Source of the DNA: an uncultured Hyphomicrobiales bacterium
GTDB lineage: Bacteria > Bacteroidota > Ignavibacteria > Kapaibacteriales > UBA2268
Direction of reading: 5' to 3'
Assembly (NCBI GenBank): GCA_964513465.1
Contig: CAZEMR010000005.1
Location: 14,948-78,947 of the forward strand
Length of the DNA stretch: 64,000 nucleotides
Positions 2,660 to 32,097 of this stretch are shown piece by piece (the first letter of the stretch is position 1; every line of letters starts with the position of its first letter). A program made the translations under genes and the position numbers. The notes beneath the pieces were generated by a model, which had not been told where the DNA came from, did not search any database, and saw nothing but the letters and a program-made list of their open reading frames with translations.

Positions 2660-3367
2660 ATGCAAAACCGCAGACAATTTCTTACCGCAGCCGGCGCTAT
2701 GGCGGTCGCTACCGCTGCCTCGGGTGCATTCCCGGAGCCGGCTTCCGCACAGGACAAATCAGGCGGCTACGCCAACCACAAGCTCCCGCCGCTCCCTTAT
2801 GACTACAATGCGCTGGAGCCCGTCATCGACGAAACAACGCTCAGAACCCACCACGATATCCACCACCAGGGATACGTCAACGGCCTGAACAACGCCGAAG
2901 AGCAGCTTGCTATCGCACGAGTCAAAGGCGACTTTTCGATGGTCGATTACTGGTCGCAAAAATCCGCATTCCACGGCGGCGGCCACACTTTGCACTCGCT
3001 ATACTGGAAGTCAATGTCGCCCGATGGCGGAGGAATGCCAACCGGCAAAATTGCAGAGGCCATTTCGAAAAGCTTCGGCACATTCGACAAATTCAAACAG
3101 CAATTCTCCGCAGCGGCCAAATCCGTCGAGGGCAGCGGCTGGGCCATACTCGCGGCGCGCCCCGGAGACGACACTCTGCTCGTATTCCAGGTGGAAAACC
3201 ACCAGAAGCAGATTCCCCCGAATATAATGCCAATCATGGCAATCGACGTCTGGGAGCACGCCTACTATTTGAAATATATGAACAAACGCGGCGACTACGT
3301 CGACAAATGGTGGGACATCGCCAACTGGGAGCAGGCCGAGCAGTGCATGATGCGCCACAAAAAATAA
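2660..3367 (+). CDS. Fe/Mn superoxide dismutase with twin-arginine (Tat) signal peptide
   Basis: Tat motif RRQFLTAAGAMAVATAASG...ASAQ. SOD metal-binding motifs HHDIHHQGYVNGLN and DVWEHAYYLKY. Confidence 0.9.
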   Translation: MQNRRQFLTAAGAMAVATAASGAFPEPASAQDKSGGYANHKLPPLPYDYNALEPVIDETTLRTHHDIHHQGYVNGLNNAEEQLAIARVKGDFSMVDYWSQKSAFHGGGHTLHSLYWKSMSPDGGGMPTGKIAEAISKSFGTFDKFKQQFSAAAKSVEGSGWAILAARPGDDTLLVFQVENHQKQIPPNIMPIMAIDVWEHAYYLKYMNKRGDYVDKWWDIANWEQAEQCMMRHKK

Positions 3368-3424
3368 TCCGATTAACGCACAATCAAAAGGGGCAGCCGA
3401 ATCATCCGGCCGCCCCTTTTTAAA
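3312..3424. repeat. Direct repeat copy 1 (113 bp): native 3' end of sod plus its terminator
   Basis: Identical to 4848-4960 by direct comparison of the two stretches. Confidence 0.9.
3386..3424 (+). terminator. Rho-independent terminator of sod (GC hairpin plus T-run); part of direct repeat copy 1
   Basis: aaaaGGGGCAGCCGaatcatcCGGCCGCCCCttttt. Confidence 0.7.
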
Positions 3425-3443
3425 ATGACATTAATTCATATAA

Positions 3444-4748
3444 CTAATTTGTTTGAAGGTGGCCTTCTTTTTTCAATAATGAGATAGTTTCATTATATTC
3501 TTTTGCCTCAGCAATTTTTGTGAATTCAATTTTAGAACCATTGTGATTTGCAATTTGTTCAATTTCATTAAGAGTAACTCGGAAAAATTCTTTTCTAATA
3601 TTGATCCGGTTAACTCTCATTCTATCAAATGCTTTATGTAATTTATTTTCCAATTCCGGGGCATTATCAGAATAAATCATGGCATGAACATCGAAAGGGA
3701 AAGGTACAGATGCGTCGCCTAGTTCTTTAACTCTATCTAACGGATCAAGTCGGCGAGTCATACCAATTTTATATACATCTTTTCCGAAGGAGCCAATATT
3801 TGAAATAATATAAACATGACCGGATTTTGTAAGTTCTGCCTGTGAAATAGCTCTTTGGTTTTTCTCTTCGGCTTCTTTTAATTTTTCTTCAAGTTCAGTC
3901 ATTTTTTGCTGTATAGAGCTAATCTCTTCATCGGAAGCAATTTCCATTTCTTTTCTGGCTTGCTCAAGAGCCCGTATATACTGCTGTTCTTCCATTTGGG
4001 CTTCTTTTAATGCTTTTTCAATTTCTTGCTTCCGTCTGGCTTCTTCTTTCATCATTTCGCGAATTTCTCTTTGTTCTTCACGTTCTTCTTCCTTTTTCTC
4101 ATGATATTCATGAACAAGTTTTAGCTCTTCGATTTTTAAATTCAGGTAATCTACCGTAATATCACTATTTATACGAGTGGCAAGTTTATTAATTATTTCG
4201 AAATTTTTATTAATTCTTTCAATCATTTTAGTAATATTTTTATAGTTGACCTGGGAAGTGGCAGCGTCACATTCACCATTAAATGCCCTTAGCATTAATT
4301 TAAGATTTTCATTCGCCATTTTTTTGCCCTCGGCTTTGCTGCCGCCTAATGTCCATTCCGAATGGCACACCACTGCGGTCTTGTTCCTGATCATTGATTT
4401 TTGCTTTTCTCTTATTTCACTGATTTTTGATTTATATAATTCAGAATTTTCGAAGTTATATTCCGGTTCGTAATATCCGAATTCTATTGCTTCTTCATCT
4501 TCCTTAAAAATCGCGACGAGTTTTTTTAGATGTTCTCGTTCAGCTTCGAGAGCTTTGATTTCTTCTAAAAGAACTCTTTTTTTGGCGTTTATTTCTTCGT
4601 ATTCTTTTTCCGTATCTTCAATTTTTTGGTAGGGCTCAAAACGTTTTTTTAAGGTGTTTTTCTCTTTCAGTAGAGTAAATAAATATATCAGCACACAGAT
4701 TAAGACTAATAATAAAAATAATACCATATCGAGACTCCTATAAAACAA
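3444..4748 (-). CDS. Membrane-anchored DUF4041 coiled-coil protein with C-terminal T5orf172 / GIY-YIG-like nuclease domain (SNIPE-like candidate anti-phage nuclease)
   Basis: N-terminal TM helix (MVLFLLLVLICVLIYLFTLL). About 250 aa of E/K-rich coiled coil. C-terminal GHVYIISNIGSFGKDVYKIGMTRRLDPLDRVKELG...LHKAFDRMRVNRINIRKEFFRVTLNEIEQI, matching the T5orf172 (GIY-YIG-like) pattern. Strongly AT-rich codon usage unlike the neighbouring genes. Confidence 0.8.
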   Translation of the reverse strand: MFYRSLDMVLFLLLVLICVLIYLFTLLKEKNTLKKRFEPYQKIEDTEKEYEEINAKKRVLLEEIKALEAEREHLKKLVAIFKEDEEAIEFGYYEPEYNFENSELYKSKISEIREKQKSMIRNKTAVVCHSEWTLGGSKAEGKKMANENLKLMLRAFNGECDAATSQVNYKNITKMIERINKNFEIINKLATRINSDITVDYLNLKIEELKLVHEYHEKKEEEREEQREIREMMKEEARRKQEIEKALKEAQMEEQQYIRALEQARKEMEIASDEEISSIQQKMTELEEKLKEAEEKNQRAISQAELTKSGHVYIISNIGSFGKDVYKIGMTRRLDPLDRVKELGDASVPFPFDVHAMIYSDNAPELENKLHKAFDRMRVNRINIRKEFFRVTLNEIEQIANHNGSKIEFTKIAEAKEYNETISLLKKEGHLQTN

Positions 4749-4847
4749 ATAATTATGATATCATAAACTAATAATATTTTTTTATTTTTACTAAAAATTT
4801 CTTATTTCGCAAGATAATAAAGAGAATTTTGTATTAATTTGCGTAAG

Positions 4848-4960
4848 GGGACATCGCCAACTGGGAGCAGGCCGAGCAGTGCATGATGCGCCACAAAAAA
4901 TAATCCGATTAACGCACAATCAAAAGGGGCAGCCGAATCATCCGGCCGCCCCTTTTTAAA
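4848..4960. repeat. Direct repeat copy 2 (113 bp): duplicated sod 3' fragment (last 17 codons) plus terminator, now abutting the 3' end of the minus-strand OMP gene
   Basis: Exact copy of 3312-3424. The sod fragment here has no upstream coding sequence. Confidence 0.9.
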
Positions 4961-4979
4961 TAGCTTATATATAAATGAC

Positions 4980-5642
4980 CTAGAAGTAAATGCCGAGGGT
5001 CAGGGTGTAGTATGCCTTGGCTTCCTCGTCGCTTTCCTTGCCAATCAGATTGGCCTGATTGTATTTGCCCTCGAGATTGATCGTCAGAAGGCCGAGATCG
5101 AGGTCGGCGCCTGCGCCGAGTCCGAACCCAACGCGGTTATCCGTCGGCGAACTCGACAGCGGAATCGGAATGCCCTCGGATTCGTAATCCACCGAGGATG
5201 TTATATAATTATATGTCAGATCGCCGGTGGCGTAAACCCCGATGAAACTGCGCAAAAGATAGAAATTAATACCAGCGCCGATCGGGATAATATTCTGCGA
5301 CGATTTGAGAGTTGTCAGCACTTCGCCGGTTTCGGGATCAGTGACGTAGATATCGGTCTGCGGGAATTTGTTCCATGCGATACTTCCGACGAAAAGGACG
5401 TTGTCGGTCAGGCTCACACGGGCTTTCATTCCGATATGGTAGCCGGCTTTTGTGCCGTCTCGAACGAAATTGCGGGCAGAGTCGTTGTCTTCGAATCTGT
5501 CGCGGTTGTAAATATCATTGACCTGATCATTGGGTGTCGATAGTCCGAGGTGGAATCCGATATCGACCTGGGCATGAAGCCCGAATGCGGGAGCAAGCAT
5601 AAATGCTGCTGCAATGAGGAAAAATTTGATTGATTTGTACAT
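4980..5642 (-). CDS. Outer-membrane beta-barrel protein (OmpA-like/porin-family barrel, OMP_b-brl type)
   Basis: Signal peptide MYKSIKFFLIAAAFMLAPAFGLHAQ. Alternating amphipathic strands. C-terminal aromatic residue (…LGIYF). Confidence 0.7.
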   Translation of the reverse strand: MYKSIKFFLIAAAFMLAPAFGLHAQVDIGFHLGLSTPNDQVNDIYNRDRFEDNDSARNFVRDGTKAGYHIGMKARVSLTDNVLFVGSIAWNKFPQTDIYVTDPETGEVLTTLKSSQNIIPIGAGINFYLLRSFIGVYATGDLTYNYITSSVDYESEGIPIPLSSSPTDNRVGFGLGAGADLDLGLLTINLEGKYNQANLIGKESDEEAKAYYTLTLGIYF

Positions 5643-5803
5643 AAGGTCTCCAAAAATTTATAAACAAAAATAGGTTTCCGGAGAGAAAAGTAAAAAAAAT
5701 TATAAATGAGGCCGGAATTGATGCGTCAATATCTCAAATGCAAATTAATGAAATAATTGTTATCTTGCGAAAAAGAAATTTCAGCATCTATAAATATATA
5801 GGA

Positions 5804-7750
5804 ATGGCAATGAGGAAAATTATTTTAATCGCAGCATCACTGCTTTTGATCGCAAGCATGCTTTTAGCCCAGGAAAACGAGAGCCGAACAAGGCTGGGCG
5901 CATTTCTCGGCGGGAATTTTAATATGCACAGCCCCACGATGGAATATGATTATTCGCTCACAGGCGGCGGCAATTCGATATTCGATTTCGATCAGAACTC
6001 CACCAGTCTCGGCATTAACGGCGGGCTGATCGGCATTTTTCCGCTGAACCGCATACTCTCGATTTCGGGCCGTATCGGCTACCACGGCATGGGCGCCACG
6101 CTCGAAGGCCGCCAGGCGGGAATCGTTAATCCCGACGCCAACGAGATGGACGTCTCGCTTCATTATCTCGAAATTTCGCCTATTCTGCATTTTCATAATC
6201 TTATCCCCACAGAGGGCCTGTATTTCCTTGCCGGAATTGAAGTCGGAGTGCCGATTGTGGCCAATTACAACTGGCCTGTGGTATATGACGACGGCACCGG
6301 CGCCGCAACGCTCGAAACCATCGACTCTGATATCCCCGACAAAAGCGTCCGAGTGGCGTTTGCCCTCGGCGCGGGGTATGATATTCAATTAAGCAAAGAC
6401 ATGTTCCTGACGCCCGAGGTGTCCTTCCGGCTGCCGATGACCAATGTGTCGGCCAATGATAATTTTATGACATGGAACGTGCCGCAGCTCCGGCTTGGCG
6501 TTAATCTGACATTCTCCCTCGGCGGCGACGAAGAGGCAGCCGAATACGAAGATCATTTCCTCGAAGTCGGATTCGAAGACGTCCGCTATTACGACCAGAC
6601 GGGCGCTCCGCGCAAATTGGACAAAATCACGGTCGAGGAAGTCCAATACACCGAGATGTTTCCGATTGTGCCCTATGTATTCTGCGCAGAAAATCAGGCG
6701 AAGCCCGCACCTGCCACCCAGGATCTGGCCGCAGGCAGCGAAGCAGGCGAATTCACGATGAACAGCCTCAAACCCGACGCTCTCTCGATCAACCGCTCCA
6801 CGCTCGATATAATCGGCCGCAGGATGCAGGAAAACGAGCGCTACCAGGTGACCATCACCGGCACCCGCGACAGCAAAGCCGAACAGGGCAAGGAAGACCT
6901 TTCGTCGAACAGAGCGGAATTTGCAAAAAAATATCTTGTAGATAATTATAATATTATGCCCGGACGAATCACAACCAAAAGCCGCGGCCTGCCCGAAAAG
7001 GCATCCTCGACCCGCGTGCCCGACGGAGTCGCCGAAAACCGCCGGATCGAATTCACCAGCCCCAGCGGCGACCTTCTGAAGCCGATCACAATCGAGCGCG
7101 ACAAGCAGACAGTCGCCGAGCCGCGCATGATCGAATTCATCCCGTACACCGTCACCACCGACTTGGTCACAAGATGGCAGCTCGAAATAGTCCAGGCCGA
7201 CAAAACGATCCAGGACTACCGCGGCGCCGGATTCCCCGATACTCTGCAGTGGCTGATCATGCCCAACCAGCTTCAGCCCAGCCAGATACCGCTGGATTAT
7301 ATATTCACCGCCGAGACCGATTACGGAATGAAGGAAATGGCCACCGGCTCGATCCCGGTAGAATACTACTCGATTACACGCAAGAAAACCGAAGACCGCC
7401 CGGACAAAACGATATCGAAATTCAGCCTCATCGTGTTTGATTTCGACAGCCCGGAAGTATCCGCAAAGGATCGCGAAATTATTAACGACAACGTAATTCC
7501 CGCGATTAAATATAATTCAACGGTGCAGATATACGGATATACCGACCGCATCGGCGAGGATGAATACAACAAACGCCTTGCGAAATCGCGCGCCGAAAAC
7601 GTACGCAAAATACTCGAGAAAAGCGCCCCCACCGCGCAGTTCGAGGTCTATGGCGTTGGCGAGAACATCCTGCTCTACAACAACGAACTGCCCACCGGGC
7701 GCCACCTGTCGCGCACGGTGCAGATATACGTAATCACCCCAAAGGAATAG
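5804..7750 (+). CDS. OmpA family outer-membrane protein (N-terminal beta-barrel, central domain, C-terminal OmpA peptidoglycan-binding domain)
   Basis: Probable start MAMRKIILIAASLLLIASMLLAQ (ORF track Met at 5738 lies upstream). C-terminal OmpA_C signature (…NKRLAKSRAENVRKILEK…RHLSRTVQIYV). The TDRIGEDEYN segment aligns to the OmpA_C consensus region that usually reads GHTD. Confidence 0.75.
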   Translation: MAMRKIILIAASLLLIASMLLAQENESRTRLGAFLGGNFNMHSPTMEYDYSLTGGGNSIFDFDQNSTSLGINGGLIGIFPLNRILSISGRIGYHGMGATLEGRQAGIVNPDANEMDVSLHYLEISPILHFHNLIPTEGLYFLAGIEVGVPIVANYNWPVVYDDGTGAATLETIDSDIPDKSVRVAFALGAGYDIQLSKDMFLTPEVSFRLPMTNVSANDNFMTWNVPQLRLGVNLTFSLGGDEEAAEYEDHFLEVGFEDVRYYDQTGAPRKLDKITVEEVQYTEMFPIVPYVFCAENQAKPAPATQDLAAGSEAGEFTMNSLKPDALSINRSTLDIIGRRMQENERYQVTITGTRDSKAEQGKEDLSSNRAEFAKKYLVDNYNIMPGRITTKSRGLPEKASSTRVPDGVAENRRIEFTSPSGDLLKPITIERDKQTVAEPRMIEFIPYTVTTDLVTRWQLEIVQADKTIQDYRGAGFPDTLQWLIMPNQLQPSQIPLDYIFTAETDYGMKEMATGSIPVEYYSITRKKTEDRPDKTISKFSLIVFDFDSPEVSAKDREIINDNVIPAIKYNSTVQIYGYTDRIGEDEYNKRLAKSRAENVRKILEKSAPTAQFEVYGVGENILLYNNELPTGRHLSRTVQIYVITPKE

Positions 7751-7780
7751 TGTATAGCCCGAAAAATGATGTAAATACAA

Positions 7781-23572: not shown

Positions 23573-23703
23573 TCCGGCAAAATATCTATATATGGGGTGG
23601 CTGCGAACCGGCCATCCTTTTTTTGGGAATGTAATATATATTTCTTGATGAGTTCAGTTGGATTCTATTTAAGAGTATACATTATTATTCAATAATAAAA
23701 AAA

Positions 23704-24429
23704 TCAAATTAATAATACCCAGAAAATATTCGAAATAATATTAATAAGAATCGAAATTAATATAGTAAACAAAATTGAAGCAAGAGGATACTTTTTGATA
23801 AACAGTTCGAACTTTAGAAGTCTTGGCTTTCTTATTTTCTTAAGCTCCCTTTCTAATTTATGGATATATTTTTCTGGTAGAGCTTTCATTCCAAAAAAAG
23901 CCTTACAAGAATCGCAAATTACAGGATTTTCAGTATTATATATAACATCGTATTTATAGCCATTCATGTCAAATAAACATCCCCGTGTATCTCTATGTAC
24001 AATACTGTAAACATCATCATTTGATATATCTTTAAGTGCCATTTTGATTAAGATTATTTCATAGATATTCTTTAATATAAAGTTTTCTATAGAAATATTA
24101 TTGATAAATAGTAAATGATCAATATCCGCTATAGACAGGCAAGCACAATTTTGTCCGGTTCTATGCAGATAGAAATTATCATCGAAACGATAATTCATAA
24201 TACCTAAAACAATATCAGAATATTTAATATTCTTCATGATATCCTCAGTCTCATCTCTTGAATAAACGATATCATATGTACCATAATCATTCGTTGGCCT
24301 GGGAAGATTATCAAGTGTTTCGATCTGATCGATTATAAACAATTTTGATTTGAATTTCTTAAGTTTTTTTAAATCAAGTTCATGCCGCAGATTTCCCAGA
24401 ATGACTATTTTAATTTTTGTTATTGACAT
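23704..24429 (-). CDS. AT-rich orphan hypothetical protein with C-terminal TM anchor (likely horizontally acquired)
   Basis: Codon usage is visibly far more AT-rich than the flanking genes. Soluble N-domain with Cys pairs (…GQNCAC…, …CDSCKAFF). C-terminal hydrophobic helix YPLASILFTILISILINIISNIFWVLLI. Confidence 0.55.
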   Translation of the reverse strand: MSITKIKIVILGNLRHELDLKKLKKFKSKLFIIDQIETLDNLPRPTNDYGTYDIVYSRDETEDIMKNIKYSDIVLGIMNYRFDDNFYLHRTGQNCACLSIADIDHLLFINNISIENFILKNIYEIILIKMALKDISNDDVYSIVHRDTRGCLFDMNGYKYDVIYNTENPVICDSCKAFFGMKALPEKYIHKLERELKKIRKPRLLKFELFIKKYPLASILFTILISILINIISNIFWVLLI

Positions 24430-24888
24430 TCCTTCCTCCTGTTAAGCTGTTTACGACTGATAATATGATTTTCGGTTAAAAATATTTTGGAATTAACTGG
24501 TAAAGATGATATTTAAATAAGATACGAAATATTATAAAAATATATTCGATAAATATTGAAATCTTGCTTTATTACAAAATATTAGAAATATGTGGTTTTA
24601 AAATTAGAAATGTCTTGCAAAGATTGCATGGACTGAGTGCTTGATTATTTCAATTACAGAAATTTCATGAAAAACTGGCGAACTTCCCGCCGGCACTCAC
24701 GAATTCCGCTGGAACTCCGCGGCCATAGCCCCCGGCGCATATAATTGCGTGATAACAGGCAGGGGAGATGTCAGCGCAGAAAGAATCATCATCACGAGGT
24801 GAGCCGATGCCCGCGTGAAATATTATCCGAAAAAATTCGTTTCTTAATAACTTATCGGATATGATTTCAAACGCTGACTTATATATTT

Positions 24889-26418
24889 ATGGCAAATTTC
24901 GAATCGAATGAATCCCCCAAAAAACGTCCCCGCATGAGGCGCCGGACGGTGGTCTCGCAGTCAAAAATCGATAATTTGAACATCCCGCTCGATGAGGATA
25001 TTTTCCGCCGGCTCGGGCGGCTGGCCGAGGACGCAGGCTATAGGATATACCTCGTCGGCGGCTATGTCCGCGACCATTTTCTGAAGCGCCCGAATACGGA
25101 TATCGACTGCTCGGTGATCGGCGATTCGATTGATTTTGCCAAACGCGCCGCAGAGCGGTTTAATTCCAAAGCCGTGCTCTACGAAAAATTCCGCACCGCG
25201 CTTGTGCCGGTCGGGGAGTACAAGATCGAATTCGTGGGCACCCGCAAGGAGGAATATCTGCCCGATTCGCGCAAGCCGATCGTCACGGTCGGCACGCTCG
25301 AGGACGACCTTCGCCGCCGCGATTTTACGGTCAATGCGATGGCCGTTTCGCTGAACGAAGACAATTTCGGAGAAGTGATCGACCTCTTCGGCGGGCTTCG
25401 CGACCTCGACGCAAAGCTATTGCGAACGCCGCTCGATCCGGTGGAAACATACAGCGACGACCCGCTGCGGATGATGCGGGCCGCAAGGTTTGCCGCGCAG
25501 CTCGGATTCACAGTCGATCCGCCTTCGTTCGACGCAATCGGGAGAATGGCCGAACGCATCAAAATCGTATCGCAGGAGCGGGTCACGGACGAAATGCTGA
25601 AAATCCTCGAATCGCCCAATCCGGCTCATGGCTTCCGCATACTTCACGCAAGCGGCCTGCTTAAATATATATTCCCCGAACTCGAAGAGCTTGCCGGGGT
25701 GGACATCGTCCAGGAAGACAGCAAAACATTCGGCCACAAAGACGTATTCAACCACACGCTGCAGGTGCTCGAGAACGTCGCAGGGCGTTCGGATAATCTC
25801 TGGCTGCGCTTCGCAGCTCTGGTGCACGATATTGCCAAGCCCCGCACCAAGAAATACGTGCCCGGCACCGGCTGGACATTCCACGGCCACGAAGAGCTCG
25901 GCGCGCGATATATGAAAAAATTATTCCGAAAAATGAAGCTTCCGATGGAGCATCTGCCGTACGTCGAAAAGCTCGTCCGGCTGCACCAGCGCCCGATGGC
26001 CCTCGTTGACGAGGGCGTTACCGATTCCGCTGTCCGCCGCCTGGCCGTTGCCGCCGACGATGCGCTCGACGACCTCTTTCTGCTATGCCGTTCGGACATC
26101 ACCACCGGCAACCCGCGGCTGACCGAGCAGTATATGAATAATTACGAAATCGTCTGGCATAAGGTGCTCGAGGTGCAGGAAAAAGACCGCCTGCGCGCAT
26201 TCCAGTCGCCCGTGCGTGGCGATGAGATCATGGAGGTGCTGGGTATCGAACCCTCGCGGATAGTCGGTGCAATCAAATCGGAGATAGAGGAGGCAATACT
26301 CGACGGCGTAATCCCGAACGAATACGATCCCGCCCGCGAATATTTTATGTCCCACAAGGACGAATGGCTGGAAAAATATCGAATGGAATTTAAGAATTTC
26401 CGGAAAAACCGGAATTAA
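24889..26418 (+). CDS. cca: CCA-adding tRNA nucleotidyltransferase / poly(A) polymerase family with HD domain
   Basis: Head domain GGYVRDHFL…DIDCSV…RRDFTVNAMAV. HD motif HDIAKP. Confidence 0.8.
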   Translation: MANFESNESPKKRPRMRRRTVVSQSKIDNLNIPLDEDIFRRLGRLAEDAGYRIYLVGGYVRDHFLKRPNTDIDCSVIGDSIDFAKRAAERFNSKAVLYEKFRTALVPVGEYKIEFVGTRKEEYLPDSRKPIVTVGTLEDDLRRRDFTVNAMAVSLNEDNFGEVIDLFGGLRDLDAKLLRTPLDPVETYSDDPLRMMRAARFAAQLGFTVDPPSFDAIGRMAERIKIVSQERVTDEMLKILESPNPAHGFRILHASGLLKYIFPELEELAGVDIVQEDSKTFGHKDVFNHTLQVLENVAGRSDNLWLRFAALVHDIAKPRTKKYVPGTGWTFHGHEELGARYMKKLFRKMKLPMEHLPYVEKLVRLHQRPMALVDEGVTDSAVRRLAVAADDALDDLFLLCRSDITTGNPRLTEQYMNNYEIVWHKVLEVQEKDRLRAFQSPVRGDEIMEVLGIEPSRIVGAIKSEIEEAILDGVIPNEYDPAREYFMSHKDEWLEKYRMEFKNFRKNRN

Positions 26419-29400
26419 AAATCTTCGATTTCGCCCATTTCTTTCTTCCGGCATAAAGGCCCGAAAGCGCAGTAAGTGCATGAATTTCCCGAAGGATCGA
26501 CGGGGAATTGCCCCGCGCGGATATCCTCCACGATTTCTTTTGCCATTTTGATACTTGATTCCACGGCATCTTCGGCGGAAACCAAATTTCTCGAACCTGA
26601 TATATTTATATTTTTTTTAAGCCCGGTATTCATTGATAATTTTGATCGATCATCTGCCAGAACGGCTTGCTCGTATTTAAATTTCGAATTCTTTTTATCA
26701 TAATACGGATCAAAGGGATAATATGCTGCGCCGCCGAATTCAATGGAAGTATGATACTTATCACTCATAAATTGTTTGGCCGCAGCAAGGTATAACGGCA
26801 TCTGAAAAGATTTTCCCTCAAGTATGTTTCCGGTCGATGATGCGCTGCCAAGCGATGTTTTGTAATCGCCAATGAGCAGTTGGGGCGTGTCCGTATCGGG
26901 GTCAATTTCGATGCGGTCGATTTTCCCCCTCAGGCGGAATCCGTCGAATTCGACCGGCGGCAGTGACTGTGCGTGGTTTCGCGACGGCATACCGAACGAG
27001 AATTCGAATAAACCCGGCGTATATGGCCAGCCCATTCGTATTCGGCGGAGCTCGGCGCTGAGCCACGACCTAAGATACCCCGGGGTGGTCGGTGTGCCCA
27101 TTATCCTCTGCTCTTCGAGACCGAAGAACGGGTGATCGAATTTCAGGCGTTCGATCTCCTCGCGTGCAATTTCCATCAGCCTTTCGCGGTATTCATCCTC
27201 GCGGTCGGGATCGAGCCTTGTTAATATGAAATCCGGCAGATATAACTCTGTTGGATTTATCCGGCGTCCGCCCTCGGATTCACGCAATTCGGAATAGAAT
27301 CGAAAAACGATTTTGTGGAGCGTATTGCCGGTTTCAAGCGGCGATAGCGCCAGCTCTGGCTCTTCGTATTTTTTAATGCGCAGCTTTTTTTCTACGAAAT
27401 AGGCGTAAGGGCATTTGGCGTATGAATCCAGATCGGAGACTGATATTGCCAGATTCGTACTCTTCGAATAATCTGCGGCGATTTGCTCAGGCAGCTTCGA
27501 AACGAGTATCACACCTTCGGGAACGGCATCCTGTTTTCTGATTCTGGCTTGGTCGATAAACCGGATTTTATCGCCAAGTCCGGTTTTTTCGGCTATGTCG
27601 CGCAGCTCCCGGTTTTCGGGATCAATATTTTGAAATTCGCAGTATTTTTGTAATAATTCCTGGCGCGAGGTGATTGTATTTACAAATTCATAGCCACCCG
27701 GAATCTGTCCTCCCGATAGATCGGCCAGGCAGCCATCGGCCTGAAGCGTGGTGATTTTGAGCAGTTCGTCGACGAAGGAGGAGCGCACCAGTTCGCGTTC
27801 GTTTTCGCGGGCGGGAAAGGTAATATATATTTTTTTCGATCCGGAATTAATTATCTCCGGGGCATTGGCAAGGAACTGGTAGAATTGCAGGCGTTCGGAC
27901 TGTATATGCCTCAATTCGCTGCCGTAAAGCTCTTTGCCGAGAAATCGCTCGGAGCGGAATGCCAGAGGAAATTCCCCATCGAGCGCCCCGCAAAGTATCA
28001 TTACTTTATAAGGAATTGAGCGCGTCTGCTCGATGGCGGTCACAGTCACGCCATATCTCTGCTTTTCGCGGATCTGATATTTTGCGCCCGAAACGGCCGT
28101 TCGCAGCCTGTCGGCATAGAAAGCGGGGGAATAACCGCTGACCGGATTTCCCATGCCCGAATCGGCGTCGGCGGTGGCGCGGTCTTCGAGTATGAAGGTC
28201 ATTTCGTCGATAGCTTCGTTCAGCGCTGCGAGGGCGTGAGCATTTTTTTCGGCATCTTCCTGGTAATAAATGAATTCGGTGTTTGTTCCGATTTCCGATC
28301 TGTTGATGCTTTGTTCGTAATAATCGCGAATATTTCCGGCCACATGATGCCGCATGATTATATCATTTTTTATAAAATCGGAGAATTCACGCGGGCGAAG
28401 CTTACCGGCCGATAGCGGCAGCGAATTGATGAAAATATTAAAATCATACAGCGCCAGGCGGACTTTTTCAAGCTGAGTCCGTGCCACCATCATATCTATT
28501 TCTTCGGTCTCCTGGTACTTTTCCATCAATTCGATTTCTTTTTCAATTCGGTCGATAGTGCTCTCCAGACGGGCAATCCAGCCCTTATGAGCTCCGCGGG
28601 CATATCCGCCGATTATTCGTAAATCCTGGGCGACTTGTATCAGGTTTATAGTGTTGATTTCTTCGTCGGCGTTTTCGTCGCGATAAAATTTCAGATATTT
28701 GCTTTCGAGTGCGCGCTGGACGTCTGAGCCTCGGAAGCCTTTTGCGATGCAGTCCAGCAGAGCGAATACGCCCACAGTCACAGGCGATTTTTCCAGCGGA
28801 AATCGGTCGCTGATATTGACAGGTATATTATGCAGAAAAAATATTTCTCGGAACAAATCCGAGTAATTTTCTGGCTTTCGCATCGTGACGCATATATCCG
28901 AAGGGCGATAGCCGTTTGCGCAGAGATAGCGGATCAATTTGGCGAGAAATCGAACTTCCTCGATTCGGTCTTCGGTTTTTACAATACGGATCATCTCAGA
29001 AAAATTCGGATTGCGAATATCTTTTTCCGCGTTGAACAGCCATTTGCGAAGGTATTCCGTCCGTTTTGATTTGTCGAATTCTTCCTTCTCTTCGGATTCA
29101 ATCACGAATTTATCCGTGGACCTCTTTGCGAATCCGGATTTTTCGAGCGCAGCCATAGTCTCTCGAAGATTGCCGTAAAGCGGGCCGTTGTCGTGGCGAT
29201 AGTCAATATTGAGCGCAAGTCCGGCCTGGGCATCAACGAAAGCAGATAGGAATTCTCTTTCGGGCAGGCGGAATTCGGTGAATTCATCCAGAAATATCAC
29301 ATTATCGGAACCGAATATTTCGTTCAGCCTGTCATTTCCGTCCGATTTGCTCAGAATAGAATTCACCAGGTAGATCATGCCTGGTTCGTCGAGATATTTA

Positions 29401-29942
29401 TCGCCGAGCAGCTTTTCATATTCTTCATATATATTCGCAATATCCTGCAAACGCGTGGGATCGAAGATCGTATCGTGTGTGATGTCGGAATCTTCCAGCT
29501 CTTTGCGCAATTCTTTGGTTCTGATCCCATCTTTTCTGAGACCATATATCACATTGGCCAGACGCTGGATCAGAGCGGTTGAAACCCGCTGACCACCCTG
29601 CTTATAGAATTGTAAATCAGCGTTGGAAATCGCCTCGCCGAACATCGCAAGGCGATAGGCTTCGCTGACGATATGGTACTGTCCCAGATCGACCAGACTA
29701 CCAGCGCAGCGTTCAACGAATTGCGAGAATGTATATATACCAAAAGTTCCGGCGGGCTTTTTGTGATAATCGAAATATCTGCGGATCGAATCGAAGCGTA
29801 GCTTTCGAACCAGCCGGCCGGTTGGCACTATTAGACTAAGGCAGTCGATTGCGCCGTTTTTCAGAAAATGATCCAATATCCCGGCAGCTTCATCAGGATA
29901 TGCATCAATTGCGTAAGCTTTATTATATAATATCTGGGCCAT
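26415..29942 (-). CDS. AddB/RexB-like PD-(D/E)XK nuclease family protein with C-terminal Fe-S nuclease domain (no AddA-like partner in window)
   Basis: Degenerate N-terminal P-loop-like LIVPTGRL. C-terminal Cys ligands (…KCPYAYF… CTYCAFGPLC). About 1175 aa. Confidence 0.6.
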   Translation of the reverse strand: MAQILYNKAYAIDAYPDEAAGILDHFLKNGAIDCLSLIVPTGRLVRKLRFDSIRRYFDYHKKPAGTFGIYTFSQFVERCAGSLVDLGQYHIVSEAYRLAMFGEAISNADLQFYKQGGQRVSTALIQRLANVIYGLRKDGIRTKELRKELEDSDITHDTIFDPTRLQDIANIYEEYEKLLGDKYLDEPGMIYLVNSILSKSDGNDRLNEIFGSDNVIFLDEFTEFRLPEREFLSAFVDAQAGLALNIDYRHDNGPLYGNLRETMAALEKSGFAKRSTDKFVIESEEKEEFDKSKRTEYLRKWLFNAEKDIRNPNFSEMIRIVKTEDRIEEVRFLAKLIRYLCANGYRPSDICVTMRKPENYSDLFREIFFLHNIPVNISDRFPLEKSPVTVGVFALLDCIAKGFRGSDVQRALESKYLKFYRDENADEEINTINLIQVAQDLRIIGGYARGAHKGWIARLESTIDRIEKEIELMEKYQETEEIDMMVARTQLEKVRLALYDFNIFINSLPLSAGKLRPREFSDFIKNDIIMRHHVAGNIRDYYEQSINRSEIGTNTEFIYYQEDAEKNAHALAALNEAIDEMTFILEDRATADADSGMGNPVSGYSPAFYADRLRTAVSGAKYQIREKQRYGVTVTAIEQTRSIPYKVMILCGALDGEFPLAFRSERFLGKELYGSELRHIQSERLQFYQFLANAPEIINSGSKKIYITFPARENERELVRSSFVDELLKITTLQADGCLADLSGGQIPGGYEFVNTITSRQELLQKYCEFQNIDPENRELRDIAEKTGLGDKIRFIDQARIRKQDAVPEGVILVSKLPEQIAADYSKSTNLAISVSDLDSYAKCPYAYFVEKKLRIKKYEEPELALSPLETGNTLHKIVFRFYSELRESEGGRRINPTELYLPDFILTRLDPDREDEYRERLMEIAREEIERLKFDHPFFGLEEQRIMGTPTTPGYLRSWLSAELRRIRMGWPYTPGLFEFSFGMPSRNHAQSLPPVEFDGFRLRGKIDRIEIDPDTDTPQLLIGDYKTSLGSASSTGNILEGKSFQMPLYLAAAKQFMSDKYHTSIEFGGAAYYPFDPYYDKKNSKFKYEQAVLADDRSKLSMNTGLKKNINISGSRNLVSAEDAVESSIKMAKEIVEDIRAGQFPVDPSGNSCTYCAFGPLCRKKEMGEIEDF

Positions 29943-30963: not shown

Positions 30964-32097
30964 CTATTTATTTCTGATATAATATTTCCCTGGAAGCTGC
31001 CGCGCAAGGCCTTCGAATTCGAGATTCAACAGGCGTGGCAGGATTTCCGGCATGTCTAATCCTGTGCGGTCGGCCAGCTCGTCAATATGCAATGGCTCGA
31101 GATTGAGATTTTCGTAAATAATTTTGTCCAGCTTATTCGTAAAGCTGATCACCTGCTGGGAATTGCCGTTCTTCTGAGCGGCGGTCAGCCCCAGCTCGCC
31201 GAGCACCATTTCGGGGTTTAATGCGATATGCGCCATTTGTTTATGGATTAATTTATTAGTGCCCTCGCTCTTTTCGGCATTGATATTACCCGGCACCGCG
31301 AAAAGCTCGCGCTGGTGATCGAATGCGAAGTTTGCCGTAATCAGAGCTCCGCCCCGGGCCGCGCTTTCGACCACGAGAGTGGCCATAGAAATCCCGCTGA
31401 TAATGCGGTTGCGCTGGGGGAAATATCCCGGCCTCGCCTTGGTGCCGCATGGATATTCCGAAATAATTGCCCCGCCGGATTCGACAATTTTCTCCGCATT
31501 GCGTACGGAAACTGCCGGAGAGATCGAGTCGACCCCAGAGGCGATAACCGCATAAGTCGTTCCGCCAGCATCGATTGCGGCCATATGCGAGGCGGTGTCG
31601 ATGCCATAGGCCAGGCCGCTGGTGACGATTACACCCGCGCGCACGAATTCTTTAGCAAAGCGCTCGGCGGTCAGTTTGCCGTACGTTGTGCAGCGCCGTG
31701 TGCCAACCATCGCGATCGAAACGGTTTCAGGCGATTCCAGCCGCCCCTTTATATATAAAACGACCGGTGGATAGGGGATATCGCGCATCAACCCGGGATA
31801 TTCATCGTCCCATATTGTGATAATATCGACATCTTCGCGGCGGCATAGCTCAAGCTGCTGTCTTGAGGCCGCCTGCGCCGGGCCGACGGGCGACGAAAAG
31901 AGATCGCCCTGGCTGAGCTTTGCGGCGAGCGCCGGAGGCAGATCGGCGTCCAGCACATGATCGAGCGATTCGTAGGTCTCGATGGTCTGCCGCTGGATAT
32001 TTACGTTGATGCCGCGTATATAGCTAAGCGCGAGTATATTTTCGAGAGTCCAGTTGCCGGGTAGTGACATATTCGATTTTTTTGATTTTTTCTGCAA
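30964..32097 (-). CDS. dprA: DNA-processing protein DprA (Smf)
   Basis: Rossmann-like DprA core (VGTRRCTTYG…SGLAYGIDTASH…GGALITA). Confidence 0.85.
   Translation of the reverse strand: MQKKSKKSNMSLPGNWTLENILALSYIRGINVNIQRQTIETYESLDHVLDADLPPALAAKLSQGDLFSSPVGPAQAASRQQLELCRREDVDIITIWDDEYPGLMRDIPYPPVVLYIKGRLESPETVSIAMVGTRRCTTYGKLTAERFAKEFVRAGVIVTSGLAYGIDTASHMAAIDAGGTTYAVIASGVDSISPAVSVRNAEKIVESGGAIISEYPCGTKARPGYFPQRNRIISGISMATLVVESAARGGALITANFAFDHQRELFAVPGNINAEKSEGTNKLIHKQMAHIALNPEMVLGELGLTAAQKNGNSQQVISFTNKLDKIIYENLNLEPLHIDELADRTGLDMPEILPRLLNLEFEGLARQLPGKYYIRNK

Follow-up and report, generated by a model that had tools for sequence, protein, structure and literature searches.

A SNIPE-family nuclease gene between perfect 113-bp repeats of a sod gene end in an uncultured Bacteroidota lineage: a probable insertion with long target duplication

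RESULTS

Genes and repeats at the locus

The window (the whole stretch of DNA that was analyzed, 64 kb) carries a gene for an Fe/Mn superoxide dismutase (sod) at positions 2660–3367 of the forward strand (Pfam Sod_Fe_N, 3e-27; Sod_Fe_C, 1e-36). Its product has 235 aa and a TAT-type signal. Convergent to sod, on the reverse strand at 4980–5642, lies a gene for an outer-membrane beta-barrel protein of 220 aa (OMP; Pfam OMP_b-brl, 8e-11). The two are separated by an inserted segment at 3425–4847 (1,423 bp, 31.8% GC) that contains one gene only, a homologue of SNIPE / PD-lambda-1 (3444–4727, reverse strand, 427 aa from ATG), which is codirectional with the OMP gene.

The segment is bracketed by two direct repeats. 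Copy 1 (3312–3424) holds the 3' end of sod, its 3' UTR and a terminator, and copy 2 (4848–4960) holds an untranslated sod tail (4848–4903) and the same hairpin (4922–4956). Direct comparison within the window showed 100% identity over 113 nt, exactly as the first-pass annotation had stated. A match of this length was absent from all 100 dinucleotide-preserving shuffles. The pair is the sole high-identity direct repeat of at least 25 nt in the 64-kb window, where the 113-bp sequence occurs twice only and is not multi-copy. Its edges are sharp, with T versus G just outside the left edge and A versus T just outside the right one, where the similarity stops. A 27-nt core of its hairpin had no exact match in metagenome contigs, a collection that does not contain this species.

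The coding part of copy 1 consists of a partial W codon followed by DIANWEQAEQCMMRHKK and the stop, that is, the last 17 codons of sod. The ORF at 2660–3367 and the hairpin at 3386–3420 bear out that this copy is the genuine end of sod with its terminator. In copy 2 the same 17-codon tail is preceded by an in-frame TAA. The insertion itself generated this fragment, which an annotator could mistake for a pseudogene of a separate sod copy. The GC content of the repeat (53%) is close to that of the flanks (50%) and far from that of the insert (31.8%), which marks the repeat as host DNA and the insert as foreign.

The hairpin at 3386–3420 is an inverted repeat preceded by an A-run and followed by a T-run; its RNA fold has −22.5 kcal/mol (z = −4.4). 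It is a predicted bidirectional intrinsic terminator, common to sod on the forward strand and SNIPE on the reverse strand. The SNIPE stop codon lies 19 nt from the end of copy 1, and the OMP stop codon lies 19 nt from the end of copy 2, where the second hairpin is found. This supports the earlier view that copy 2 now serves the OMP gene. All three genes would thus retain a terminator, copy 1 acting for sod and SNIPE and copy 2 for OMP; duplication of a bidirectional terminator means that no neighbouring gene loses termination. The hairpin in copy 2 would also shield SNIPE from read-through out of the OMP gene. In practice, a nuclease that is toxic if misregulated would be insulated from a porin-like gene that is probably strongly expressed.

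The inserted gene encodes a SNIPE homologue

The ORF has 434 aa if read from a TTG start, and the annotated protein begins at the ATG (427 aa). Its domain order is an N-terminal transmembrane helix, DUF4041 and a T5orf172/MUG113 nuclease domain of the GIY-YIG type. The PADLOC profile PD-Lambda-1 (PDLC03976) matched with an E-value of 2e-166, residues 38–428 aligning to profile positions 85–476 of 491, and phrog_1847 matched with 9e-155. Pfam DUF4041 (PF13250) was found at residues 150–205 over the entire length of the profile (3.1e-20), and the nuclease domain matched MUG113 (5.5e-20) and T5orf172 (1.1e-16). The N terminus, MVLFLLLVLICVLIYLFTLL, has the Kyte–Doolittle maximum, a mean of 3.26 over residues 2–20, which qualifies it as a membrane anchor.

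Every residue that is invariant across an alignment of 27 sequences (A1, with this protein as the first row) is present. These include Y306, G322, R325, R326, E335, H348, E360, N373 and E380, the last of which appears to be the counterpart of the catalytic E414 of the E. coli protein. The N-terminal 130 residues of the homologue are poorly conserved. From these matches, the cargo is a full-length homologue of the anti-phage nuclease SNIPE, and protection against phage is putative here.

Experiments have established SNIPE as a membrane-bound nuclease that cleaves the DNA of phages as it is injected and that works as a single-gene system; 59% of its homologues have one transmembrane helix in the first 70 residues (PMC13190303). 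The present protein resembles SNIPE / PD-lambda-1 in its identical domain order and its full-length HMM match. It differs in being only 58–61% identical to its nearest database homologue, and also in that the characterised E. coli protein has ManYZ and lambda-like tape-measure proteins as partners, whereas this homologue is known from its sequence.

The region upstream of the gene (4728–4847, reverse strand) is promoter-like and has 19% GC. A motif within it, at 4796–4820, also occurs upstream of a neighbouring ompA-like gene. We rejected this similarity as part of the same rearrangement: it amounts to about 75–80% identity with indels, against 100% in the repeat.

The SNIPE family is often found on plasmids and phages. 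The search for further copies of the insert in metagenomes, viral contigs, plasmids and phages revealed none, only distant coding similarity, at best ≤61% aa identity and about 65–76% nt identity over the nuclease domain. The non-coding ends of the insert had no similarity in these same collections, so the donor and the boundaries of the unit are not definable by conservation.

Flanking repeats at other SNIPE loci

Direct flanking repeats were present at 8 of the 50 metagenomic SNIPE loci and at 3 of the 74 control ORFs (Fisher p = 0.03). Most of the eight were imperfect repeat families or attC-like arrays, and flanking repeats occurred at none of the 21 viral SNIPE loci; on these grounds such repeats are not general among SNIPE genes, and repeat generation as a trait of the whole family is not supported. 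The homologues L050 and L090–L092 lie within same-strand arrays separated by attC-like imperfect palindromes. Two other loci look analogous to the present one: L087 has a 41-bp perfect repeat of the start of its host gene, and L083 has a 43-bp repeat with 98% identity.

Search for mobility functions

Neither the insert nor the called genes and large ORFs over about 13 kb to its left and 27 kb to its right yielded an integrase or transposase domain; several of these genes and ORFs have no Pfam match. The window contains no tRNA and no Rfam family, and readings based on a tRNA attachment site or a known RNA were rejected. The insert lacks terminal inverted repeats. The repeat shows no attC-like or dif-like architecture and has only a simple 35-nt terminator hairpin.

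A DNA transposon or insertion sequence was rejected, as there is neither a transposase nor terminal inverted repeats and the duplication is not short (<~15 bp). The earlier judgement that the repeat is too long for a transposase-type target-site duplication is supported. An integron cassette was also rejected, since there is no attC-type palindrome at the boundary, no array and no integrase, in contrast to L050 and L090.

The empty arrangement in a relative

A related metagenomic contig (L088) lacks the insert. It carries sod (76% aa identity), a 39-nt spacer with one hairpin, and then a convergent OMP gene (76% aa identity). When the insert and one repeat were removed from the window, the remaining sequence was colinear with this contig at 72% nt identity over 1,094 columns. 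In the repeat itself, the coding part aligns to this other species (72% nt identity) and the UTR is shorter. The insertion that had been proposed from the DNA alone is thus matched by an empty sod–hairpin–OMP arrangement in a relative. A conspecific empty allele was not found in the databases searched, and the pre-insertion sequence is a reconstruction.

One distant relative (L004, 46% identity), found by scanning genome contigs with a lineage-specific upstream protein, was rejected for the comparison of the site. It retains the rluB–hyp–sod synteny, but a different gene follows downstream, and it therefore says nothing about the insertion site.

The structure in other assemblies

A second MAG (GCA_046542925.1) has the identical repeat–insert–repeat structure and differs by three SNPs, all outside the element. 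The Logan contigs of SRR11308339 represent a third haplotype, and they break precisely where the repeat ends, overlapping by 30 nt.

These data bear on the third proposal of the first-pass annotation, an assembly artefact, in which the real chromosome would be sod–repeat–OMP and the insert would have been joined to it in silico via the shared 113 bp. The sequence data are metagenome-assembled, and a 113-bp repeat is near common k-mer and read lengths. In addition, one Logan contig runs continuously from sod into the repeat without a break at the repeat start, contrary to the prediction of a simple two-copy graph; this may be ascribed to loss of coverage in the adjacent stretch of 19% GC. Against an artefact, the second MAG shows the same structure with a different SNP haplotype, which makes a false join unlikely, and the Logan contigs branch precisely at the repeat end. 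Placement of the insert also requires reads that link it to the host-specific repeat on both sides, so that at least a real molecule of repeat plus insert exists. We consider an artefact very unlikely. As read from assembled contigs alone, the structure may be compatible with a mixture of empty chromosomes and circular or tandem molecules of repeat plus insert.

DISCUSSION

Our results showed an insertion between sod and OMP, its single-gene cargo, an exact duplication of the target, no mobility gene, and a relative that keeps the ancestral arrangement without the insert. We interpret the locus as an insertion with long target duplication (ILTD) of a SNIPE gene, with a probability of roughly 0.7.

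This type of insertion was described by Nobusato et al. (2000, Gene 259:99) and by Furuta, Abe, and Kobayashi (2010, NAR 38:2428; PMC2853133). The latter authors required a repeat of >30 bp, an insert of <20 kb and no other mobile element (PMC2853133). Here the repeat measures 113 bp with 100% identity, and the 1,423-bp insert holds a single gene and no mobility gene. They also called for restriction and modification genes as cargo, and SNIPE is alone at this locus. A solitary mcrA nuclease and orphan methyltransferases were nevertheless accepted as ILTD cargo (PMC2853133), and on that precedent the present locus would be an event of this class that carries a new cargo. Their cases include repeats of 46–423 bp, overlap with gene 3' ends, low-GC inserts and the single-gene mcrA (PMC2853133).

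The likeness to these cases lies in a small, foreign defence unit, often of low GC, that has no mobility gene and is flanked by direct repeats of tens to hundreds of bp, which in ILTD are single-copy at the empty site. As is often so in ILTD, the repeat overlaps the 3' end of a neighbouring gene. There are also differences: the cargo is SNIPE and not a restriction-modification (RM) or Type IV restriction gene; the insertion lies in an uncultured Bacteroidota lineage, whose phylum was outside the earlier surveys; the empty site comes from a relative at 72% nt identity and not from a conspecific genome; and the repeat coincides with a bidirectional terminator, which gives the duplication a clear transcriptional consequence.

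In the process that we propose, a horizontally acquired, self-contained SNIPE unit (promoter region and ORF) would have entered the short spacer between sod and OMP in a Kapaibacterium chromosome, and one illegitimate event would have created both 113-bp copies at once. The foreign DNA might have been captured at a break with 113-nt staggered ends that were then filled in. Alternatively, replication might have switched template to the foreign DNA and returned 113 nt upstream. No donor was found, so microhomology at the junctions is not assessable and the one-step mechanism stays a conjecture.

The same topology would be produced precisely by one crossover between the chromosome and a small circle that carries SNIPE and a second sod 3' end with its terminator. 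Such a Campbell-type integration could proceed by RecA through the 113-bp homology, or by a tyrosine or serine recombinase encoded elsewhere and acting in trans on an integrase-less, cis-mobilisable element. Repeats that restore the 3' end of a gene are typical of integrase attachment sites (PMC2853133), the two copies are identical, and this step is used in the cycle of excision and re-invasion via such repeats proposed by Kobayashi. Nevertheless, neither the insert nor the called genes and large ORFs over about 40 kb yielded a recombinase domain, there is no tRNA, the repeat resembles neither attC nor dif in its architecture and is a simple terminator hairpin, and a circle of 1.5 kb would have no replication function. 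The model also leaves unexplained how a foreign gene of 32% GC was first joined to a host-specific segment of 53% GC, and it therefore presupposes an earlier duplication event. The circle with a copy of the target, the first proposal of the earlier annotation, finds no support in the form of a recombinase, a tRNA or an att-like site; we regard it as unlikely.

Integrase-mediated islands at the 3' ends of genes or tRNAs, and their integrase-less, cis-mobilisable derivatives, share with this locus direct repeats that contain the target gene's 3' end and restore it. The present element differs in having no integrase in it or near it, no tRNA, no recognisable core site and an insert of 1.4 kb. Integron cassettes with defence genes likewise share a single-gene defence cargo between repeats, but the repeat at this locus is made of host coding sequence and a terminator and is not attC-like, and neither an array nor an integrase is present.

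A two-step origin has been drawn for rRNA genes as a formal alternative to ILTD (Lim et al., 2012; PMC3457768). Applied here, the insert would first have arrived beside the repeat, the repeat and insert would then have been duplicated in tandem, and recombination with an uninterrupted allele would have left the present structure. The pathway is thus formally described, and the three haplotypes point to a polymorphic population, which makes recombination between alleles plausible. It needs three events in place of one, and an allele with an unduplicated insert was not found in any database searched. This origin seems to us highly improbable.

The GIY-YIG superfamily, to which the T5orf172 and MUG113 domains belong, includes free-standing homing endonucleases. 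In fungal mitochondria (e.g., atp6 of Allomyces), free-standing GIY-YIG genes occur at the 3' ends of genes whose C-terminal coding part is duplicated; the two copies differ, one of them having been brought in by the element, and the nuclease is a homing enzyme. The present locus resembles these in having a GIY-YIG gene beside a duplicated host gene 3' end, and differs in its identical copies and its membrane-bound defence nuclease. The earlier annotation had offered homing or gene conversion as its second proposal: the GIY-YIG protein would cut the empty allele and its gene would be copied in by double-strand-break repair. The position of the gene between conserved genes would suit such a process. 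On the other hand, the match to the SNIPE defence family spans the whole protein, membrane anchor and DUF4041 included, and no further copy of the element was found in any collection searched. Moreover, in homing an element is copied between homologous flanks, and a 113-bp duplication does not result. We therefore give this explanation almost no weight.

Under insertion with long target duplication, the perfect 113-bp repeats would permit precise excision or amplification of the insert by homologous recombination. The defence gene could in this way be removed and regained scarlessly.

Little is understood of how defence genes move when no phage, plasmid, transposon or integron carries them. 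ILTD is a rare kind of insertion that has been catalogued since 2000 almost exclusively for RM genes. The locus offers a clean example outside the RM genes, with a characterised nuclease family, exact repeats and an empty site in a relative.

A more speculative idea, which we think has little chance of being correct, is that nuclease-type defence genes in general enter chromosomes by long target duplication at damage that they inflict themselves. A newly arrived SNIPE, expressed before it is restrained at the membrane, might nick the chromosome, and its own DNA might be captured at the staggered break. The unit of repeat, gene and repeat could later excise, amplify and spread. If this were true, the "virus-like life cycle" of RM genes proposed by Kobayashi would extend to a non-RM, single-gene nuclease and would gain a one-gene test system.

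Structure of the repeat and the inserted segment

The direct repeats lie at the boundary of sod, encoding an Fe/Mn superoxide dismutase (2660-3367; Pfam Sod_Fe_N and Sod_Fe_C), and a convergent OMP gene (5642-4980, minus strand). Positions 3312-3424 (copy 1) and 4848-4960 (copy 2) were identical over all 113 nt, as the first-pass annotation had claimed, and none of 100 shuffles produced a match to the repeat. Only these two copies were present in the window with three mismatches permitted, and a scan of the entire 64 kb revealed no other long direct repeat of high identity. The repeat edges are abrupt: the bases outside are unlike on both sides, and similarity stops there. The GC content was 53% in the repeat, 50% in the surrounding chromosome, and 31.8% in the 1,423-bp segment between the copies.

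Copy 1 starts within the third-last Trp codon of sod and spans the stop codon and a hairpin at 3386-3420 (-22.5 kcal/mol, z = -4.4), whose shape, with an A-run on the 5' side and a T-run on the 3' side, fits a bidirectional intrinsic terminator. The sod ORF end and this hairpin bear out the earlier description of copy 1 as the end of sod plus its terminator. In copy 2, the 17-codon sod tail recurs with its reading frame shut off by an in-frame TAA upstream, and so does the hairpin, at 4922-4956; the functional reading first given to this copy, a terminator for the OMP gene, was right.

The only substantial ORF in the segment (3444-4727, minus strand) encodes 427 aa from the ATG of the NCBI annotation. 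On the minus strand, the order is OMP gene, copy 2 hairpin, a 120-nt upstream region of 19% GC, inserted gene, and copy 1 hairpin, which sod reaches from the opposite side.

The inserted gene encodes a SNIPE homologue

The inserted protein matched the PADLOC PD-Lambda-1 profile over nearly its full length (2e-166) and phrog_1847 (9e-155). It contains the Pfam domains DUF4041, which precomputed Pfam annotations of contigs call SNIPE, and MUG113/T5orf172, has a 20-residue hydrophobic helix at the N-terminus, and carries every invariant residue of a 27-homologue alignment in which it is itself included. PD-lambda-1, now renamed SNIPE, is a GIY-YIG nuclease anchored in the inner membrane, where it cleaves phage DNA at genome injection; both DNA and the tape-measure protein are bound by its DUF4041, and without the membrane anchor the nuclease is toxic to the host (PMC13190303).

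SNIPE homologues were frequent on plasmids and phages. The closest protein among 5.8 billion was only 58-61% identical, and no match to the insert's non-coding ends was found in the collections searched. A low-GC member of the Bacteroidota may be the source of the insert, to judge from its 32% GC, the presence of Bacteroidota-type homologues in the match list, and a promoter of FCB-like shape.

Two likenesses between SNIPE and neighboring genes were observed. SNIPE and the OMP gene both have a TAG stop separated by exactly 19 nt from the end of a repeat copy (3425-3446 and 4961-4982), and ATGAC occurs in both spacers, which may be coincidence. The regions upstream of SNIPE (4796-4847, minus strand) and of an ompA-like gene (5735-5790, plus strand) have GCAAATTAAT ... 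TTATCTTGCGAAA ... AAGAAATT in common, in the same orientation relative to the gene; a 13-mer of this motif was exact at these two sites only in the window (BLAST E = 0.001 within the window). Both regions look like TTG-N20-TAnAAATA promoters, and the motif could be the site of a common regulator, part of a promoter typical of the lineage, or sequence captured from the host.

The empty site in a relative

The window's source is annotated as a Candidatus Kapaibacterium MAG. The empty site, for which a search in related genomes had been proposed, was found through the sod protein in a 1.1-kb JGI contig (L088) from another species, 76% identical to the window in both the C-terminal part of sod and the OMP protein. 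On this contig, only a 39-nt spacer containing one hairpin separates sod from the convergent OMP gene. Without the insert and one repeat copy, the window was colinear with this contig at 72% nucleotide identity over 1094 columns, which identifies the segment as an insertion into the sod/OMP spacer.

A more distant relative, L004, retains rluB-hyp-sod and has a different gene downstream and no SNIPE. This contig (CAYVVD010000020.1) is titled "uncultured Hyphomicrobiales bacterium"; as it has the same rluB-hyp-sod gene order as the Kapaibacterium window, with proteins 46-60% identical, its taxonomic label looks doubtful.

The structure in other assemblies

The same repeat-insert-repeat structure was present in GCA_046542925.1 (contig JBKHAK010000040.1), and the three positions at which this assembly and the window differed all lie outside the element. 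At 2023/4980/5754 the window has G/C/T, GCA_046542925.1 A/T/A, and the Logan assembly of SRR11308339 A/C/A; the variant at 4980 makes the stop codon of the OMP gene either TAG or TAA. Inside the repeats and the insert, no variation was seen.

One Logan contig runs from sod through exactly the last repeat base, and a second, which extends into the OMP gene, has the final 30 nt of the repeat as its start. Since contigs from a k = 31 graph overlap by 30 nt at a branch point, a second continuation of the repeat end, the insert, existed in that sample. The sod contig had no break at the repeat start, probably because the assembly was thin and had lost the adjoining 19%-GC sequence.

A false join of the insert to the chromosome through the repeat is unlikely: it would need reads linking the insert to host-specific sequence on both sides, and a second assembly with a different SNP haplotype has the same structure. 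This narrows the origins first offered (integration of a circle, gene conversion or homing, assembly artefact) by disfavoring the last. The one alternative to a chromosomal insertion would then be an empty chromosome accompanied by circular or tandem repeat-plus-insert molecules.

Flanking repeats at other SNIPE loci

Of 80 metagenomic loci with SNIPE homologues, the 50 flanked on each side by 300 bp or more were evaluated for bracketing direct repeats (at least 30 bp, at least 80% identity). Such repeats occurred at eight of the 50, versus 3/74 control ORFs (Fisher p = 0.03), all three in one repeat-rich contig; this weakly suggests that flanking repeats are a habit of SNIPE genes. The majority of the eight were imperfect intergenic repeat families. 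L050 (28-2528), L090 (2716-6899), L091, and L092, the last three from the closest homologue, are same-strand arrays including a SNIPE homologue, with 120-135-nt imperfect palindromes ending ...ACAAC / GTTGT... as gene spacers, and look like integron cassette arrays carrying defence genes. In L090, Mrr-like restriction domains adjoin the SNIPE homologue.

Two loci resemble the present one. In L087, a perfect 41-bp direct repeat (341-381 and 2241-2281) corresponds to the beginning of a small gene downstream, from the start codon through the first 14 codons (MKHTLLIITALMLV), and its upstream copy is fused in frame as the N-terminus of a 624-aa SNIPE homologue, apparently a gene fusion produced by insertion with target duplication. 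In L083, a 43-bp repeat of 98% identity (5393-5435 and 7729-7771) surrounds a 2.3-kb segment of 53-60% GC, versus 62-70%, in which a SNIPE homologue is accompanied by a small ORF for a secreted protein. No bracketing repeat was found at the 21 evaluable viral SNIPE loci. Given this mixture of metagenomic cases and the viral result, SNIPE genes use several vehicles, with long target duplication an occasional one.

Class and mechanism of the insertion

What entered the ancestral convergent arrangement is a foreign single-gene cassette without mobility functions, bracketed by an exact 113-bp duplication of host sequence. A transposon was ruled out by the lack of terminal inverted repeats and of a second gene. 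Over ~13 kb left of the insert and ~27 kb right of it, neither the called genes nor the large ORFs had an integrase or transposase domain; the neighboring genes are housekeeping or regulatory where identifiable, and several had no Pfam match. No tRNA or Rfam family was found in the window. An integron attC site was rejected, as the repeat does not fold like one and is unlike the L050/L090-L092 repeats.

The locus fits insertion with long target duplication (ILTD), originally reported by Nobusato et al. (2000) and defined by Kobayashi's group by a repeat >30 bp, an insert <20 kb, and no other mobile element; among the known examples are repeats of 46 to ~420 bp, repeats that overlap the 3' end of the adjoining gene, an insert of low GC, and an mcrA nuclease gene on its own (PMC2853133). 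That group proposed that DNA breakage, a property common to such genes, underlies ILTD and that the repeats allow amplification. The entry step is hypothetical, and tandem duplication followed by recombination is a formal alternative (PMC3457768).

Most earlier ILTD cases are from competent species (PMC2853133). The window encodes an AddB-like helicase-nuclease (26415-29942) and DprA (30964-32070), a recombination mediator of natural transformation whose presence alone proves nothing.

We infer that both repeat copies arose in one illegitimate event, preferred because it needs the fewest steps and explains the perfect identity and sharp ends. Foreign DNA could have entered at a break with a 113-nt stagger that was then filled in, or replication could have switched template out and back. 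The right repeat edge lies just beyond the terminator T-run, speculatively a pause or break site.

A second low-GC island (23620-24660; 16-32% GC versus ~50%) directly follows a terminator hairpin at 23594-23625. Its ORF (23704-24429, minus strand, 241 aa) has a hydrophobic C-terminal tail and no Pfam or PADLOC match, and no direct repeat >9 bp was found flanking the island, which may represent a further lone gene acquisition, in this case with no duplication.

The sod/OMP locus is a new example of ILTD, a known insertion type, with a new cargo and in a new phylum. Had the 113 bp not been duplicated, OMP transcription would have no terminator and would run on into a nuclease gene that is toxic when mis-expressed; with both copies in place, all three genes would be terminated. 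The 113 bp of perfect homology would also be ample for RecA-mediated precise excision or amplification.
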